A stretch of DNA of 55,475 bases from Thermoguttaceae bacterium (GTDB taxonomy: Bacteria; Planctomycetota; Planctomycetia; Pirellulales; Thermoguttaceae), in contig JBEKZY010000040.1 of the NCBI GenBank assembly GCA_049509395.1, positions 1-55,475 on the forward strand, given 5' to 3'. Numbering within the stretch: the first letter of the stretch is position 1; every line of letters begins with the position of its first letter. A program made the position numbers and the translations under genes. Below, in pieces: positions 45,413-49,434 of the stretch. A model generated the notes under the pieces. It did no database searches. It saw only the letters and a program-made list of their open reading frames with translations, and was not told the DNA's origin.

Positions 45413-46381
45413 ATGGAATCAACGCGCCAAGAAAAACGCATGTCCGCGATCAGCACACGGCTCGGGACCCTCGAGCACCCCTCCCCCACCTTCGCTCCGG
45501 GTTCCGAGCCGGTTGATGACCTGAATATCCGATGCGCAGTAACCATAATCATCCCCGCGCTGAACGAGGCCGACGCCATCGGCCGGGTTGTCGGAGATCT
45601 GGTCGCGCAATATCCCGATTATGAGATCCTGGTCGTAGACGACGGCTCCACCGACAATACAAGCGAACTTGCCGCACGCGCCGGCGCGCGGGTCATCCGC
45701 CACGATTGGAACAAGGGATACGGCGCAAGCCTCAGGACCGGGTGCCGGCTGGCGAAAGGCGAGATAATCGTCTGTTTCGACGGCGACGGACAGCACAATC
45801 CAGACGACGTCCAACGACTCGTCGATGAGATCGGCCCGCACGACATGGTGGTGGGAACGCGATCACGCGACTCCCACGAGCCGCTGGTCCGGCGGCCTGG
45901 CAAGTTCGTCCTTTCCACTTTCGCGAACTTTCTTGCAGGCGTAAAAATACCCGACGTGAATTCCGGCTTCCGCGCCTTTAAACGCGGGGTGATCCTGCGT
46001 TACCTGCACCTCATGCCCACGGGTTTTTCTTTTTCCACGACCAGCACATTTGCCATGCTTAAAAGCGGCCGGCCGGTGAAATGGGTGCCGATTACCGTCA
46101 AAAAGCGGATCGGCACAAGTTCGGTGTCGCAAACCCGCCACGGCCTGCAAACCCTGCTCCTGATGGTCCGCTTGACTACGCTTTTCGAGCCGTTGAAAGT
46201 CTTTCTGCCCGTCAGCACATTATTTTTGCTCATGGCCGTCGGGTTCCTGGTCGCCAATTTCGCCGCCGGCCGCAACGTGCCGCAGACCTCGGTCATCATG
46301 TCCGTCTCCGGCATCATGGTCTTTCTGATGGGACTGGTGATGGACCAGGTGGCCGCGCTTCGCCGGGAGAAACACGAATGA
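45413..46381 (+). CDS. family 2 glycosyltransferase, polyprenyl-phosphate sugar synthase-like (DPM1/GtrB/ArnC architecture)
   Basis: IIIPALNEADAI, ILVVDDGSTDNT, FDGDGQHNP, and two C-terminal TM helices. An alternative start (MSAIST) lies at 45440. Confidence 0.9.
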   Translation: MESTRQEKRMSAISTRLGTLEHPSPTFAPGSEPVDDLNIRCAVTIIIPALNEADAIGRVVGDLVAQYPDYEILVVDDGSTDNTSELAARAGARVIRHDWNKGYGASLRTGCRLAKGEIIVCFDGDGQHNPDDVQRLVDEIGPHDMVVGTRSRDSHEPLVRRPGKFVLSTFANFLAGVKIPDVNSGFRAFKRGVILRYLHLMPTGFSFSTTSTFAMLKSGRPVKWVPITVKKRIGTSSVSQTRHGLQTLLLMVRLTTLFEPLKVFLPVSTLFLLMAVGFLVANFAAGRNVPQTSVIMSVSGIMVFLMGLVMDQVAALRREKHE

Positions 46382-49300
46382 GCGAAGCTTTTGTCTTGGG
46401 CCAGCTCTACAAACCCAATCGCTTCACAGTCGAGGCTGTCCGAGCGTTCTGGGATTCGGTCGCCGACAAGTATATCCACGAGAACGAGTCGCTTAAGGAA
46501 ACGCATTTTCAGCGGTTCCAGCGGGCTTTTGCGCATTTTCAACCGGCTGAAGGCATGCGAGCCCTCAATATTTGGAGCCGTAACGGCGAAGCGATCGATT
46601 ATTTCAGATGCATGTGTGCCACTGCTGGCTTGCCCAGCAGTGCGGGGAACACGGTTGGACAAGCCAACCGTGGCACCCGTCTTCCGCGCATCGAATTAGT
46701 AAATGCCGAAGTCTCCCCGCGCTTGATCGCCAAGGCCCGCGCCCGCTATCCCGAAGAGAATTTTATCGAAACCGATCTATTGTCTCTGCCGTTTGCCGAT
46801 TCTGAGTTCGACTTCATCCTTTCCCTGGAGACGCTCGAGCACGCGCCCGATCCGCTTGGATTTTTACGGGAGCTTGCCCGCGTGCTCAAGCCGGGCGGAA
46901 GACTGGTGCTAAGTTGTCCGCCCGCCGCGGCCGAACTGCCGCTGTGGATCTACGAATTGTTGCTGCCCAACCACGGGGAAGGGCCGCATCGCTTCCCCTC
47001 GACCCGCGAGGTCAAGGGCCTGTTGCATGCCGCGGGCCTGGAACTCAAACGTCACGAAAGTACGCTTTTCATTCCCGCGGGGCCGCGGCTGCTTCGGCGC
47101 TTGGACCCGTTTGTCGAGCGCATTGTAGCAAAAACGCCGCTTCGCGAGTTGGGTATCCGGCAGTTCTTCGTATGCCAACGACCGCTGGGCGCGGGCCCTT
47201 GGCAGGAACTTATTCGCGACGTGGTGGAAACGAATCTCTGCACCCGTTGCGGAACGTGCATGGGCGTCTGCCCGTCGGGCGTATTCGAATTTCTGGCAAT
47301 CGACGAAGCATGCCTGCCCGCCGCCGTTCGGCCGGAAGCCTGCACTGGCTGTGGCTTGTGCATACGCGCATGTCCGGGCAAGCGAGTATCGTTTGCAAAG
47401 GTGCGATCCGCGGCCGGGTACGCGCCGATCCAAAGTAAGGAACTCGGCCCGATCCGCCGCATTCGCACTGCCCACGCCCGCGACCCCGCCCTGCGGAGCG
47501 CCGGTGCAAGCGGCGGCGTCGTTACCGCCGTGCTCTGCGATTTGCTTAAACGCGGCGAAATCACGGGCGCAATCGTCCTTGACTCGCACCCTGATGCGCC
47601 ATGGCGGCCTTGGCCACGTATCGCCCGCACGCGGGAAGAGATCGTCCATGCGGCGCAAAGCAAATACTGCCTGACTCCGACCAACGTAGCCATCAAGGAA
47701 ATCGATCCCGATAGGGATCGTGTTGCGATCGTGGCCCTGCCCTGCCAGATTCACGCGATTCGAACTCTGGAGTGTCTGGGCCACCCTGCCGTGAAAGGCG
47801 TCTCGCTTATCATTGGTCTTTACTGTGGAAATCAATTGTACTTCGGCGCAACCCGGAGCTTCCTTCGTCGCCATGGCGTACGCGATTTGTCCGAGGTCGC
47901 CGAGATCCGCTACCGCGACGGGCTTTGGCCCGGAAATGTCCGCTGCATCCTCCAAGACGGGCGCTCGTTCACAAGACCAAAGTTTCAATTCAATCACTTG
48001 ATATCGTTTTATGCCGTCGAAAGGTGCTTGTTATGCGCCGACTTGGCCTCGGAAGGCGCGGATTTCTCGGTTGCCGACGCCTGGAACGAGGAATATGGGG
48101 CCGGCCACGGCTCGTCGCTCGTTGTTTCCCGCACTGAGCTAGGCGAATCTATTGTTTCAGATCATGTCGCCCGCGGTGTTATTGTTGCGGGAGAAATCGA
48201 ATTGGAACAAGCCCTGGCCATGCACGCCCACGGCCTGGACCTGAAAAAGACAGGCGCCTTGCTCCGTATTCAAAGTCTCAAGCAACACGGGCGGCCCGCG
48301 CCGCAATACGATCTGCCCGAGCCAAATCCGCCCATCAGCCGGCAATTGGCCGAAGTCCTGGTTTCCGCGCATTTCCGCCTGCTGCGCACTCGCCCTGCCC
48401 GCTGGATTTTGGATCGGATTCCCTTCGGCCTCATAGGCCGCGCGTACGTCGGCGCGAGATCGGTTTGGAAGCGCTCCGCCGCCAAAAAATATAAAAATCA
48501 AAACAACGCTTCCCCGGACAAGCGGCCATCCTGGGCACAGTGGTGGCGGATGCTTGGGCCGCTGCTGTTGATCGTCATGCTCTGGCGCATAGGGCCCGAA
48601 AAATGCTGGTCGGCCATAAGCGGCGCCGACTTTTTCTGGTTCCTTGCCGCCTGTTTGCTTTCCATTCCCTCCATCGCGGTAAAAGGGCTGCGCTGGCAGT
48701 GGATGCTCCGAGCGGTCGGCTTCGAGTCTTCCTTCGGCGAGAGCACGGGCGTGTATGCGGCAGGAATGTTGGCCGGCGCGGTGACGCCCGGCAAAGTGGG
48801 CGACCTTGCAAAAGCCCCGTTGCTGCTCGCGCGCGGCCTTCCTTTAAGCGACGGCGTGGCCGCCTCGTTGCTGGACCGGGTGTTCGACGGCATTGTATTG
48901 TTGGCCCTAGGGCTGGGCGGCATTCTTGCCATGCCGGCACTGCCCGGCAGAACGATTATCGCCCTTACGGCCCTGATAGCCATTGGCATCTCCATCGCGG
49001 CGGTGTATTTGTTTCGCGATTCTTTCGCCAAAACCCTGCACATAAGCGGCGTCGGATGGTGGCTTGTCATGGCAATAACGACGCTTGCCGCCTCGGCAAT
49101 GTATTTCGCCTCGGCTTATTGCTGCGCTAAAGCCATCGGACTCAGTCTCGGCATCGTCGATGTCGTGGCCGGTTCATCGGTTGCCGCAGTGCTTGCGCTC
49201 CTGCCAATATCGGTCGCCGGCATCGGCACGCGCGACGCGGCATTCGTCGCGATCTTTGCCCATTGCGGGGTCGATGCCGGACAATCAATAGCCTTTTCCA

Positions 49301-49434
49301 GCCTGATCCTTGCATGGATGCTGGTCAATTGCGTTTTTTTTCTCGTTGTTTCGCGGTGCTGTCCTCACGACGCCAAAAAGCCGCAAGTCCTTACACGATC
49401 TGATGGAGTGATATCCCATGAATCCGCCAACTGA
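46378..49434 (+). CDS. fusion protein: SAM methyltransferase - 2x[4Fe-4S] ferredoxin - FrhB/FdhB-like domain - flippase-like (UPF0104/LPG-synthase TM) domain
   Basis: The start ATG overlaps the GT2 stop (ATGA). The methyltransferase motif is LPFADSEFDFILSLETLEHAPDP..LKPGGRLVLS. The Fe-S motifs are CTRCGTCMGVCP and CTGCGLCIRACP. The FrhB-like region reads GASGGVVTAVLCDLLKRGEITGAIV, ALPCQIHAIR, LIIGLYCG. The C-terminal multi-TM region reads LSIPSIAVKGLRWQWML..GKVGDLAK.. Confidence 0.8.
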   Translation: MSEAFVLGQLYKPNRFTVEAVRAFWDSVADKYIHENESLKETHFQRFQRAFAHFQPAEGMRALNIWSRNGEAIDYFRCMCATAGLPSSAGNTVGQANRGTRLPRIELVNAEVSPRLIAKARARYPEENFIETDLLSLPFADSEFDFILSLETLEHAPDPLGFLRELARVLKPGGRLVLSCPPAAAELPLWIYELLLPNHGEGPHRFPSTREVKGLLHAAGLELKRHESTLFIPAGPRLLRRLDPFVERIVAKTPLRELGIRQFFVCQRPLGAGPWQELIRDVVETNLCTRCGTCMGVCPSGVFEFLAIDEACLPAAVRPEACTGCGLCIRACPGKRVSFAKVRSAAGYAPIQSKELGPIRRIRTAHARDPALRSAGASGGVVTAVLCDLLKRGEITGAIVLDSHPDAPWRPWPRIARTREEIVHAAQSKYCLTPTNVAIKEIDPDRDRVAIVALPCQIHAIRTLECLGHPAVKGVSLIIGLYCGNQLYFGATRSFLRRHGVRDLSEVAEIRYRDGLWPGNVRCILQDGRSFTRPKFQFNHLISFYAVERCLLCADLASEGADFSVADAWNEEYGAGHGSSLVVSRTELGESIVSDHVARGVIVAGEIELEQALAMHAHGLDLKKTGALLRIQSLKQHGRPAPQYDLPEPNPPISRQLAEVLVSAHFRLLRTRPARWILDRIPFGLIGRAYVGARSVWKRSAAKKYKNQNNASPDKRPSWAQWWRMLGPLLLIVMLWRIGPEKCWSAISGADFFWFLAACLLSIPSIAVKGLRWQWMLRAVGFESSFGESTGVYAAGMLAGAVTPGKVGDLAKAPLLLARGLPLSDGVAASLLDRVFDGIVLLALGLGGILAMPALPGRTIIALTALIAIGISIAAVYLFRDSFAKTLHISGVGWWLVMAITTLAASAMYFASAYCCAKAIGLSLGIVDVVAGSSVAAVLALLPISVAGIGTRDAAFVAIFAHCGVDAGQSIAFSSLILAWMLVNCVFFLVVSRCCPHDAKKPQVLTRSDGVISHESAN

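Follow-up and report, generated by a model that had tools for sequence, protein, structure and literature searches.

A Planctomycete Fusion Protein Joins a Methyltransferase Fold and a Ferredoxin-FrhB Redox Module to a Flippase-Like Membrane Domain and Suggests a Route for Tailoring Lipid-Linked Sugars before Export

INTRODUCTION

The locus described here raises the question of whether, and to what end, a single bacterial protein combines a methyltransferase-fold domain, a two-cluster ferredoxin, a domain resembling FrhB, the beta subunit of coenzyme F420 hydrogenase, and a polytopic membrane domain of family PF03706. The protein is encoded by one long open reading frame (ORF) in a 55,475-nt stretch of DNA from a Thermoguttaceae bacterium (contig JBEKZY010000040.1 of assembly GCA_049509395.1; this whole stretch is called the window below). 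We find that the fusion recurs in independent assemblies and that the same parts, in other phyla, are separate genes lying side by side next to a glycosyltransferase gene. On balance, we think it probable that the fusion joins three neighboring genes of a four-gene cassette and that, together with a GT-C-like protein encoded downstream, it belongs to a three-stage surface-glycosylation operon, similar in plan to the Arn and Gtr systems, that tailors a lipid-linked sugar before export.

RESULTS

Anatomy of the fusion protein

The ORF at 46378-49434 is free of interruption over its full length, as a first-pass annotation of the window had stated on the basis of the sequence, and hidden Markov models (HMMs) of Pfam match all four of the modules that this annotation had named. 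The features of the ORF, with the evidence for each, are as follows (SAM, S-adenosylmethionine; pLDDT, predicted local distance difference test).

46378..49434, plus strand: four-module fusion ORF, 1,018 aa plus stop, with methyltransferase-like, 2x[4Fe-4S] ferredoxin, FrhB-like, and PF03706 modules
46378..47187, plus strand: class I methyltransferase-fold domain (aa 1-270; Pfam Methyltransf_11/23/25 and Foldseek)
46609..46680, plus strand: in-frame insert, a two-hairpin palindromic element of 22-23 aa (aa 78-100; inverted repeats)
47221..47382, plus strand: 2x[4Fe-4S] ferredoxin domain (aa 282-335; Pfam Fer4 dicluster, E about 1e-7)
47467..48495, plus strand: FrhB-like flavin/[4Fe-4S] domain (Pfam aa 364-608; PDB sequence or fold matches to Fsr, FrhB, 8riu_B, 8rja_E, and HCAR)
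48460..48555, plus strand: basic linker WKRSAAKKYKNQNNASPDKRPSW (alignment; pLDDT < 50 at aa 710-717)
48556..49305, plus strand: PF03706/UPF0104/TIGR00374 flippase-like polytopic membrane domain (Pfam aa 727-976; helices of the model at aa 719-994)

A longer ORF that opens at 46081 is a mere in-frame upstream extension, the homologues beginning at MSEAF. The protein falls into database cluster P0001 (1,018 aa), from which it differs solely by M295V. Its ATG shares the sequence ATGA (46378-46381) with the stop codon of an upstream gene for a GT2 glycosyltransferase, and at the other end the next gene begins at 49418, within the last 17 nt of the ORF; judged from these gene boundaries, the two overlaps are the pattern of a translationally coupled operon. 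An AlphaFold model built on a 39-sequence alignment has a mean pLDDT of 81.6, with disorder restricted to the insert (aa 82-101), the linker (aa 710-717), and the C-terminal tail. When this model was submitted to Foldseek, the redox part resembled F420-type FrhB/Fsr modules and HCAR, and the N-terminal part resembled class I methyltransferases.

Distribution of the fusion and of the separate genes

A search of 5.8 billion proteins for homologues of the fusion returned fourteen full-length four-module clusters (at the 90% identity level), drawn from independent samples, 985-1075 aa in length and 63-100% identical to the window protein; with the N-truncated P0005, the four-module architecture occurs in P0001-P0015. 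Among 1.84 billion representatives, exactly one 50%-identity cluster (P0010) spans all four modules, from residue 7 to residue 1000. A parallel scan of one genome per GTDB species identified 318 genomes with a relative. We examined the best 79 of these 318 loci by scanning their stop-to-stop ORFs with domain HMMs cut from our own alignment, and 82 loci were classified. The FrhB-to-PF03706 junction lies in one frame in 8 species-level metagenome-assembled genomes (MAGs) from Thermoguttaceae, Pirellulales, Phycisphaerae, and "Planctomycetales," and the complete four-module ORF is intact in 6 of the 8. The domain order, which the first-pass annotation had suggested looking for in other genomes, was thus recovered both among P0001-P0015 and in 8 GTDB species genomes. 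In the other two, L009 (6686-10160) and L032 (6605-10046), both with "MFD" isolate names, frameshifts split the methyltransferase-like part into three frames; these could be sequencing indels or real pseudogenization, and one of the L009 shifts comes right after the palindromic insert described below. The fusion is genuine, evolutionarily maintained, and confined to one planctomycete clade.

Outside this clade, the parts are arranged differently. The glycosyltransferase, methyltransferase-fold, ferredoxin-FrhB (Fd-FrhB), and PF03706 genes are separate and adjacent in 48 loci from Bacteroidota, Krumholzibacteriota, and UBP1, in the order GT2, methyltransferase, Fd-FrhB, membrane protein in Bacteroidales and Lentimicrobium and in the order GT2, membrane protein, methyltransferase, Fd-FrhB in Krumholzibacteriota and UBP1. 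A fused methyltransferase-Fd-FrhB protein of about 690 aa accompanies a separate PF03706 gene in 16 further loci (Peribacteria/Peregrinibacteria, Kiritimatiellales, and other Planctomycetes), and one locus has the swapped order Fd-FrhB-methyltransferase, followed by PF03706. PF03706 is linked to the cassette in 73/82 classified loci, and genetic linkage of the four functions extends to at least six other lineages. In the basal relatives L015 (P0024) and L157 (P0021), the PF03706 gene lies directly downstream of the methyltransferase-Fd-FrhB gene and overlaps its end. A neighbor-joining tree places the four-module proteins in one crown clade, with the fusion at the base of the clade and lineages without the membrane domain nested inside it; the tree carries no support values, and the order of gain and loss that it implies is only indicative.

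The first-pass annotation had held that the fusion would fall if relatives encoded separate adjacent modules and a missed stop or frameshift came to light here. Such relatives do exist, but the fusion recurs in 8 independent MAGs and so is no product of a missed stop or frameshift. Since the same parts are separate neighboring genes elsewhere, the fusion is a "Rosetta stone" situation, from which it follows that the four functions act jointly. What is directly established is the presence of the modules, the fusion as a real and conserved feature, and the linkage of the genes across phyla. A literature search on FrhB together with pyruvyl transferase, flippase, PF03706, or Peregrinibacteria returned nothing relevant, and the cassette, to judge from its occurrence in sequenced loci, appears to be widespread but undescribed.

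The ferredoxin-FrhB redox module

The ferredoxin domain contains two complete CxxCxxCxxxCP motifs, CTRCGTCMGVCP and CTGCGLCIRACP. It is followed by matches to FrhB_FdhB_N (PF04422; aa 364-439, E 6e-22, 77.9 bits versus a cut-off of 22) and FrhB_FdhB_C (PF04432; aa 447-608, E 1e-24, 87.6 bits versus 23.3), and the FrhB-like part of the model reaches Foldseek target-normalized TM-scores of 0.74-0.78 to FrhB and 8riu_B. In the window clade this part carries GASGG and QSKY plus the cluster cysteines PCQ, YCGN, and CLLC, which are predicted flavin and [4Fe-4S] sites. The FrhB motifs read from the sequence in the first-pass annotation were accordingly found (GASGG, PCQ, and YCG), with both Pfam FrhB HMMs above cut-off. 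Placing a ferredoxin ahead of FrhB, which the same annotation had considered unusual, is instead the standard arrangement of FpoF and Fsr: residues 279-597 can be aligned in one piece with FpoF, with the Fsr N-terminal half, and with 8riu_B/8rja_E. A helical C-terminal extension (about aa 643-706) is family specific and present in every family member. The redox part also falls short of the equivalog cut-offs for the F420 enzymes (TIGR03289, 88 bits versus 331.5; NF040616 [FpoF], 68 versus 475; PRK09325, 112.9 versus 269).

The alignment from the 79 loci revealed a division within this module. The flavin motifs GASGG, QSKY, and DxSxGDAW are universal, while the Fe-S ligands vary by lineage: the full set, two ferredoxin clusters plus the FrhB cluster, occurs in the window clade, Krumholzibacteriota, UBP1, and a Chloroflexia MAG; Bacteroidota retain just four Cys, sufficient for one ferredoxin cluster, and have lost the FrhB cluster; and most Peribacteria modules have lost nearly all of their Fe-S cysteines. 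This pattern points to conserved chemistry at the flavin site and a lineage-dependent electron route.

At E <= 1e-30, 890 representatives are related to the Fd-FrhB module, mostly Fd-FrhB proteins of about 430-450 aa. Its closest relatives outside the cassette are fused, in both domain orders, to polysaccharide pyruvyl transferases (PF04230; P0248, P0271, P0289, P0300, P0302, P0330, and P0329, the last a 1,394-aa methyltransferase-Fd-FrhB-pyruvyl transferase protein). These pyruvyl transferase-linked relatives are 31-38% identical to the module over aa 277-705, C-terminal extension included, and their fusions link the wider Fd-FrhB clade to glycan tailoring. A review of pyruvylation makes no mention of an FrhB-like partner. 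The repeated pairing of Fd-FrhB with a group-transfer enzyme suggests a scheme in which a group is installed and then reduced. For the pyruvyl transferases, this might mean conversion of enolpyruvyl to lactyl; for the methyltransferase-fold partner, it might mean that a 4-keto-6-deoxy sugar or the carrier lipid is first methylated and that a keto or methylene group is then reduced. BciB, a bacterial FAD/Fe-S enzyme annotated as frhB, takes electrons from ferredoxin and reduces a C=C bond on a hydrophobic substrate (PMC4836224).

The methyltransferase-fold domain

The N-terminal domain resembles many SAM methyltransferases in Foldseek (target-normalized TM-scores of 0.6-0.77) and matches Methyltransf_11 over aa 105-178 (E 3e-18). 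The match begins at profile position 19, leaving motif I unmatched, and the glycine-rich motif I (E/DxGxGxG), from which class I methyltransferases build their SAM pocket, is missing: L63-N-I-W-S-R68-N-G70 (LNIWSRNGEA) stands where GxGxG is expected, that is, L-N-I-W-S-R-N-G for L-D-x-G-x-G-x-G. We assigned this register visually, with the canonical methyltransferase at the C terminus of P0017 as the reference (D to N, G to W, G to R, last G kept); BLASTP of the domain against that methyltransferase aligned the motif II-III region alone.

The substitution is shared by the whole family. Across 76 cassette methyltransferase domains from all phyla, motif I reads LN[IV][WST]SR[DTN][GAC], with a small subclade having LDxDCRTG; W/S/T/D takes the place of the first Gly and an invariant R (R68) that of the second in 76/76 domains, and Bacteroidota lose even the last Gly (SRD[AC]EA). 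SLETLEH and HGEGPHR (aa 199-205) are invariant among the 76 domains. The acidic residue that ends strand b2 (N-A-E-V-S), which in class I SAM methyltransferases contacts the ribose hydroxyls, is kept as Glu in most lineages, the exception being one Peribacteria subclade with C-V-A-M-A. As the alignment has it, the LNxWSR motif I is a conserved, noncanonical family signature and not decay. The first-pass annotation was therefore right that LNIWSRNGEA replaces GxGxG and wrong to call the motif degenerate, given that LN[IV][WST]SR, HGEGPHR, and SLETLEH are conserved across phyla. The LNxWSR/HGEGPHR family may have an unusual cofactor mode or chemistry.

The membrane domain and its linker

The C-terminal domain matches PF03706 (LPG_synthase_TM) over aa 727-976 (E 9e-36, 124.3 bits versus a cut-off of 33.4, profile positions 4-289 of 302) and scores 70.7 bits, versus a cut-off of 43.2, with TIGR00374, the "flippase-like domain." The UPF0104 assignment thus withstood the HMM check that the first-pass annotation had called for, as did the FrhB-like one: both pass the Pfam cut-offs, and TIGR00374 passes too. 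The domain is polytopic and all helical, has at least seven strongly hydrophobic segments, and retains the conserved residues of the PF03706 alignment. Membership in PF03706 is solid; a flippase function would follow by analogy only.

The basic linker in front of this domain had been noted earlier, and KRSAAKKYKNQNN is indeed present in the protein. The linker marks the point at which the FrhB-like and PF03706 genes split in the relatives L015 and L157, and both its length and its sequence are conserved in an alignment of the fused homologues. In P0017 and in P0019/L087 (4066-6768 of L087), a second, canonical SAM methyltransferase domain (LLDVGCGPG) stands in the place of PF03706, and L087 also has an EF-hand/Methyltransf_3 gene (2064-3092) upstream of its GT2 gene.

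Operon neighbors and genomic context

The genes and signals that flank the fusion ORF in the window are listed below (ECF, extracytoplasmic function; TPR, tetratricopeptide repeat).

41399..44569, minus strand: Ser/Thr protein kinase with a TPR-rich C-terminal part (the orthologue in L001 carries Pkinase and TPR domains)
44571..45209, minus strand: ECF-type sigma factor, divergent from the glycosylation operon (Pfam Sigma70_r2, Sigma70_r4, and Sigma70_ECF)
45377..45407, plus strand: candidate ECF-type promoter, conserved block TGTAGAAA-N15-CGTTTA (alignment of six close loci)
45413..46381, plus strand: GT2 glycosyltransferase, polyprenyl-phosphate-sugar synthase type, with two hydrophobic helices at the C terminus (Pfam Glycos_transf_2)
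49418..52237, plus strand: 939-aa membrane protein with an N-terminal polytopic, probable GT-C domain, a Gly-rich middle, and C-terminal EF-hands (EF-hand Pfam matches and Foldseek)

The upstream GT2 protein matches PF00535 with an E of 2e-35. Among NCBIfam models it comes closest to AglJ, PpgS, dolichyl-phosphate hexose transferase, and ArnC; in the PDB it aligns at greatest length with ArnC, DPMS, and GtrB; and its closest relatives are all polyprenyl- or dolichyl-phosphate sugar synthases. Its GT-A catalytic domain, the membrane helices at its C terminus, and the use of polyprenyl phosphate by its nearest relatives would place it in this class of enzymes. A conserved ATG and ribosome-binding site in the alignment indicate that its true start is likely the ATG at 45440 (MSAISTRLG) and not 45413. 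The TGTAGAAA-N15-CGTTTA block, which occurs once in the window, lies 33-63 nt upstream of this probable start. The ECF sigma gene is conserved as cluster c21 beside the cassette in planctomycete loci. The kinase cluster, c13, adjoins the cassette in the window and in L008, L009, L014, L025, L027, L032, and L049 and is co-conserved with the sigma gene.

For the N-terminal 350 aa of the protein encoded at 49418-52237, a Pfam search returned no family. Its model is of low confidence (pLDDT 59.9, pTM 0.63); with that model, the top 17 Foldseek matches are all GT-C proteins (STT3, ArnT, ALG9, AglB, AftA, PglB, and ALG12), at E 5e-3 to 3e-2 and query-normalized TM-scores of 0.41-0.52. On the strength of this predicted fold, the protein is a probable GT-C glycosyltransferase, and it is co-conserved with the cassette in Planctomycetes. 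It also has Gly-rich low-complexity stretches ((GGMGQ/R)n), encoded by 15/30-nt tandem repeats at 50903-51084 and 51709-51792, and two C-terminal EF-hand pairs (about aa 800-925); the combination is unusual for a GT-C enzyme and is conserved in planctomycete relatives. GT2, flippase candidate, and GT-C candidate are thus co-located in one translationally coupled operon in the window, as in a three-stage system. Planctomycete loci show this linkage again, and so do Peribacteria, with a GT-C of the PMT_2 type. In Peribacteria the cassette adjoins a divergently transcribed polytopic family of 550-590 aa, one member of which scores above the PMT_2 cut-off.

Sugar-modifying genes recur near the cassette in other lineages. 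A dTDP-glucose 4,6-dehydratase (RmlB; TIGR01181, 465 bits versus a cut-off of 365) lies next to it in about 16 loci, spread over Bacteroidota, Chloroflexia, Peregrinibacteria, and one unclassified bacterium (among them L033, L036, L037, L039, L040, L041, L050, L054, L056, L062, L071, L073, L081, L086, and L021). An aldo-keto reductase adjoins it in 8 Lentimicrobium/Bacteroidota loci, and a fragment of a short-chain dehydrogenase/reductase lies beside it in planctomycete L157. RmlB stands alone, with no RmlA/C/D cluster detected among the recurrent neighbors, and neither RmlB nor an aldo-keto reductase was found within the window. The RmlB and aldo-keto reductase adjacency hints that the sugar is a 6-deoxyhexose derivative.

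An in-frame palindromic insert

Within the methyltransferase-like domain, the insert falls in the loop between helix aA and strand b2, a surface loop with pLDDT < 50 (aa 82-101). It is absent from all homologues except the L009 orthologue, which is 84% identical (insert at about 7238-7300). Its 30-mer, GTGCCACTGCTGGCTTGCCCAGCAGTGCGG, has exact copies in 69 metagenome contigs (L088-L156) from a wide range of metagenomes; in many of these a second hairpin, CACGGTTGGACAAGCCAACCGTGGCACCC, follows, and a larger inverted repeat often encloses the two hairpins. The element is about 61-66 nt long, with the consensus GGGTGCCACTGCTGGCTTGCCCAGCAGTGCGG-n-CACGGTTGGACAAGCCAACCGTGGCACCC. The hairpin motif was not found in 894 kb of non-planctomycete loci, and the element appears to be planctomycete specific. 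An Rfam search with the insert identified no family and gave sub-threshold microRNA hairpin matches only.

In the three cases whose spanning ORFs were checked for domains, the element lies within a long ORF carrying real domains (L109, a PSCyt2/PSD1 protein; L129, a Ser/Thr kinase; L113, a PSCyt2 protein) and is located between or beside the domains, which suggests in-frame linker insertion. The lengths of stop-to-stop ORFs around other copies were discarded as evidence, being uninformative alone in GC-rich DNA. On this comparison of copies, a palindromic element dispersed in planctomycetes has placed one of its copies (66 nt) in a tolerant loop without disturbing the frame, and the insertion has persisted in two lineages. 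The palindromic insert that the first-pass annotation had described between motifs I and II is real, but it is limited to the window lineage and L009 and lies outside the family architecture. Functional genes can thus harbor a dispersed palindromic element of planctomycetes without loss of frame, as they do the Rickettsia palindromic elements.

DISCUSSION

A proposed pathway

We propose that the cassette acts in five steps. The GT2 protein, by homology, would make a polyprenyl-phosphate-linked monosaccharide on the cytoplasmic face of the membrane. The soluble half of the fusion (aa 1-706) would then tailor this lipid-linked intermediate: the FrhB-like flavin site would carry out a two-electron redox step, most likely a reduction, supplied through three [4Fe-4S] clusters by a low-potential donor such as ferredoxin and not by F420, and the methyltransferase-fold domain would methylate the substrate or bind it. 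The attached PF03706 domain, by analogy with the flippase domain of MprF, would carry the tailored intermediate to the outer leaflet, where the GT-C protein would transfer the sugar to an extracytoplasmic acceptor. The divergent ECF sigma/Ser-Thr kinase pair probably controls the operon. Inferred in this scheme are the nature of the substrate, the way in which electrons flow, and the occurrence of methyl transfer and of flipping. The earlier suggestion that a redox module is coupled here to translocation of a lipid-linked substrate fits the GT2 gene upstream, the probable GT-C gene downstream, and the linkage in at least six other lineages, and it keeps the standing of a proposal.

Several observations weigh against this pathway. 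For the membrane step, a PDB sequence search with the PF03706 domain, using both the single sequence and a 20-member profile, gave no match at E <= 1, MprF included, and to our knowledge a flippase role for PF03706 has been demonstrated for MprF alone. PF03706 is also absent from close relatives inside the fused clade, L002 (P0016) and L087 (P0019), the latter with a canonical methyltransferase instead; because both are nested in the fused clade, the domain would seem dispensable or replaceable. At either end of the pathway, the GT2 protein scores under every NCBIfam equivalog cut-off (AglJ, 131 bits versus 325; PpgS, 99.6 versus 370), and the GT-C assignment rests on the low-confidence model (pLDDT 59.9) and Foldseek E values of 5e-3 to 3e-2. 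As for the tailoring step, the GxGxG SAM loop is missing from every member of the methyltransferase-fold family, and the Fe-S cysteines are absent in Bacteroidota and Peribacteria, so that a cluster-based electron supply is not universal. A membrane-surface anchor in the FrhB C-terminal extension was considered and rejected, the hydrophobic moments over aa 640-706 (0.1-0.47) lying under the 95th percentile of the soluble part (0.52). Finally, a literature search found no paper on the four-gene cassette.

Alternative explanations

The most basic alternative is that separate genes have been joined artificially by a missed stop, a frameshift, or a chimeric contig. Other phyla do encode the parts as separate adjacent genes, L015 and L157 have PF03706 separate and downstream, and the "MFD" MAGs L009 and L032 have frameshifted methyltransferase regions. 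However, the junction is in one frame in 8 species-level MAGs from different studies, 6 with the full ORF intact; the fourteen full-length clusters span 63-100% identity with a linker conserved in length and sequence; and the ORF forms coupled-operon overlaps with its neighbors. An assembly artifact, which we rejected because independent assemblies share the junction, is scarcely credible. It is also very unlikely that the ferredoxin/FrhB part really serves, in the manner of FpoF, as the input module of an F420H2 or ferredoxin dehydrogenase, anchored by PF03706 for energy metabolism, with the glycosylation genes as bystanders. The alignment of residues 279-593 with FpoF and the Fsr N-terminal half would fit that explanation, as would the database name "coenzyme F420 hydrogenase subunit beta." Yet the module scores 68-113 bits against FrhB/FpoF cut-offs of 269-475; it is always linked to GT2, methyltransferase, and PF03706 and never to respiratory-complex genes in the best 79 of 318 loci; many members have lost all Fe-S ligands; its closest noncassette relatives are fused to polysaccharide pyruvyl transferases; and F420 is not known from most of the lineages concerned.

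Two other explanations leave more of the proposed pathway standing. The cassette may act on some other membrane lipid, the head group of a glycolipid or phospholipid or an isoprenoid chain, with PF03706 flipping the finished lipid; in the isoprenoid-chain version, the methyltransferase-fold protein would methylate a C=C bond and the FrhB-like enzyme would reduce the resulting methylene, as in 10-methyl fatty-acid synthesis. MprF flips lysyl-phosphatidylglycerol, and its PF03706 domain, the sole one known to have been characterized experimentally, acts on a phospholipid; HpnL is suspected to flip in hopanoid clusters. The GT2 protein's position under all equivalog cut-offs leaves room for such a substrate, the recurrent pairing of a transferase with an FrhB-like reductase, seen also with pyruvyl transferases, suggests installation of an unsaturated group that is then reduced, and BciB-type FrhB homologues reduce C=C bonds of hydrophobic substrates (PMC4836224). 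Against this, the nearest relatives of the GT2 protein act without exception on polyprenyl or dolichyl phosphate, and GT-C enzymes are linked to the cassette in two phyla. GT-C enzymes use polyprenyl-phosphate-linked donors. The adjacent NDP-sugar 4,6-dehydratase likewise points to sugar chemistry, and lineages of the candidate phyla radiation carry the cassette though they have been reported to lack de novo lipid synthesis. We regard an alternative lipid substrate as unlikely, although it deserves to be kept in mind. Alternatively, the pathway may be right in outline while the methyltransferase fold is a SAM-independent binding or scaffold domain and PF03706 a membrane anchor or presentation platform, the flipping being left to another protein. 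Replacement of GxGxG in all members, with loss of the last Gly as well in Bacteroidota, speaks for this version; sister lineages add canonical methyltransferases (the C-terminal LLDVGCGPG domain of P0017/P0019 and the EF-hand/Methyltransf_3 gene of L087); and PF03706 is missing in L002 and L087. Conservation across phyla of the b2 acidic residue, HGEGPHR, and SLETLEH argues instead for a ligand-binding, probably catalytic site, and the linkage of PF03706 in 73/82 classified loci likewise weighs against this version, which we consider unlikely. The reading that we prefer, in which a lipid-linked sugar is tailored by the soluble half of the fusion and exported by its membrane domain, is the one carried into the comparisons below.

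Implications and comparison with known systems

Which proteins flip polyprenyl- and dolichyl-phosphate monosaccharides is as yet poorly defined. The fusion of a tailoring enzyme to PF03706 and the linkage in 73/82 classified loci provide a directly testable candidate flippase family. The cassette also places hundreds of bacterial genes named "coenzyme F420 hydrogenase subunit beta" in the tailoring of glycans or lipid-linked sugars. In its boldest form, the hypothesis is that a previously undescribed, phylum-spanning pathway uses an FrhB-type reductase and an SR-motif methyltransferase-fold partner to tailor a polyprenyl-phosphate sugar or its carrier lipid, with the PF03706 protein exporting the product; we hold this to be a real possibility, with the chances somewhat against it. 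If it is true, the planctomycete fusion is the first genomic "Rosetta stone" to assign PF03706/UPF0104, including the orphan YbhN-like proteins, as polyprenyl-phosphate sugar flippases, and the bacterial look-alikes of the F420 hydrogenase beta subunit in polysaccharide loci are glycan-tailoring reductases.

On the redox side, the archaeal F420 enzymes FpoF, FqoF, Fsr (N-terminal half), and FrhB share with the cassette module the ferredoxin-plus-FrhB architecture, the fold, the GxSGG motif, and the cluster cysteines. The module differs from them in scores far under the cut-offs, in the C-terminal extension (about aa 643-706), in its glycosylation context, and in the Fe-S ligands missing from many members, and its use of F420 is unlikely. 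BciB and HCAR, ferredoxin-dependent FAD/Fe-S reductases of chlorophyll metabolism that act on a hydrophobic substrate, resemble it in being FrhB homologues from outside the methanogens, and HCAR is among the Foldseek matches; identity, however, is only about 15%, and the context is unrelated. The Fd-FrhB proteins that are fused to a pyruvyl transferase (PF04230) or encoded beside one likewise pair a group-transfer enzyme with an FrhB-like protein, but the partner is a pyruvyl transferase and not an SR-motif methyltransferase-fold protein.

In its overall plan, the cassette comes closest to pathways that make a lipid-linked sugar, tailor it, flip it, and transfer it. The Arn pathway of Gram-negative bacteria follows this logic with ArnC (a GT2 enzyme), ArnD (a deformylase), ArnE/F (the flippase), and ArnT (a GT-C enzyme); ArnC is among the best matches of our GT2 protein, and ArnT ranks high among the fold matches of the protein encoded downstream. 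In contrast with Arn, the cassette tailors with FrhB-like and methyltransferase-fold proteins in place of a deformylase, has PF03706 as the flippase candidate in place of the small EamA/SMR-like ArnE/F, and, in the window protein, has its tailoring and flippase parts fused. The GtrA/GtrB/GtrC, PpgS-Rv3632-Rv3779, and CsbB/GtcA/YfhO systems resemble it in combining a GT2 enzyme that has C-terminal membrane helices and produces a polyprenyl-phosphate monosaccharide with a polytopic GT-C-type transferase that acts on this product outside the cytoplasm, but they use small GtrA-family flippases and are without redox or methyltransferase-like tailoring. A precedent for tailoring at the lipid-linked stage comes from the Agl pathway of Haloferax volcanii (AglJ, AglP, AglR, and AglS), in which AglP, a SAM methyltransferase, methylates a dolichyl-phosphate-bound sugar. 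AglJ is the best NCBIfam match of the GT2 protein; the Agl pathway differs in being archaeal and specific for N-glycosylation and in having neither an FrhB-like enzyme nor PF03706. MprF offers a parallel to the fusion itself: a cytoplasmic lipid-modifying module (lysyl-phosphatidylglycerol synthase) is fused to PF03706, suggesting direct hand-over of the modified lipid. In MprF, however, the domain order is reversed, the soluble part is unrelated, and the substrate is a phospholipid, whereas that of the cassette is presumably a polyprenyl-phosphate sugar; no sequence similarity to the solved MprF structures is detectable. The logic of the cassette thus matches that of Arn, Gtr, and PpgS, together with the "modify then flip" arrangement of MprF, and it departs from them in the tailoring enzymes, the PF03706 candidate, and the fusion itself.

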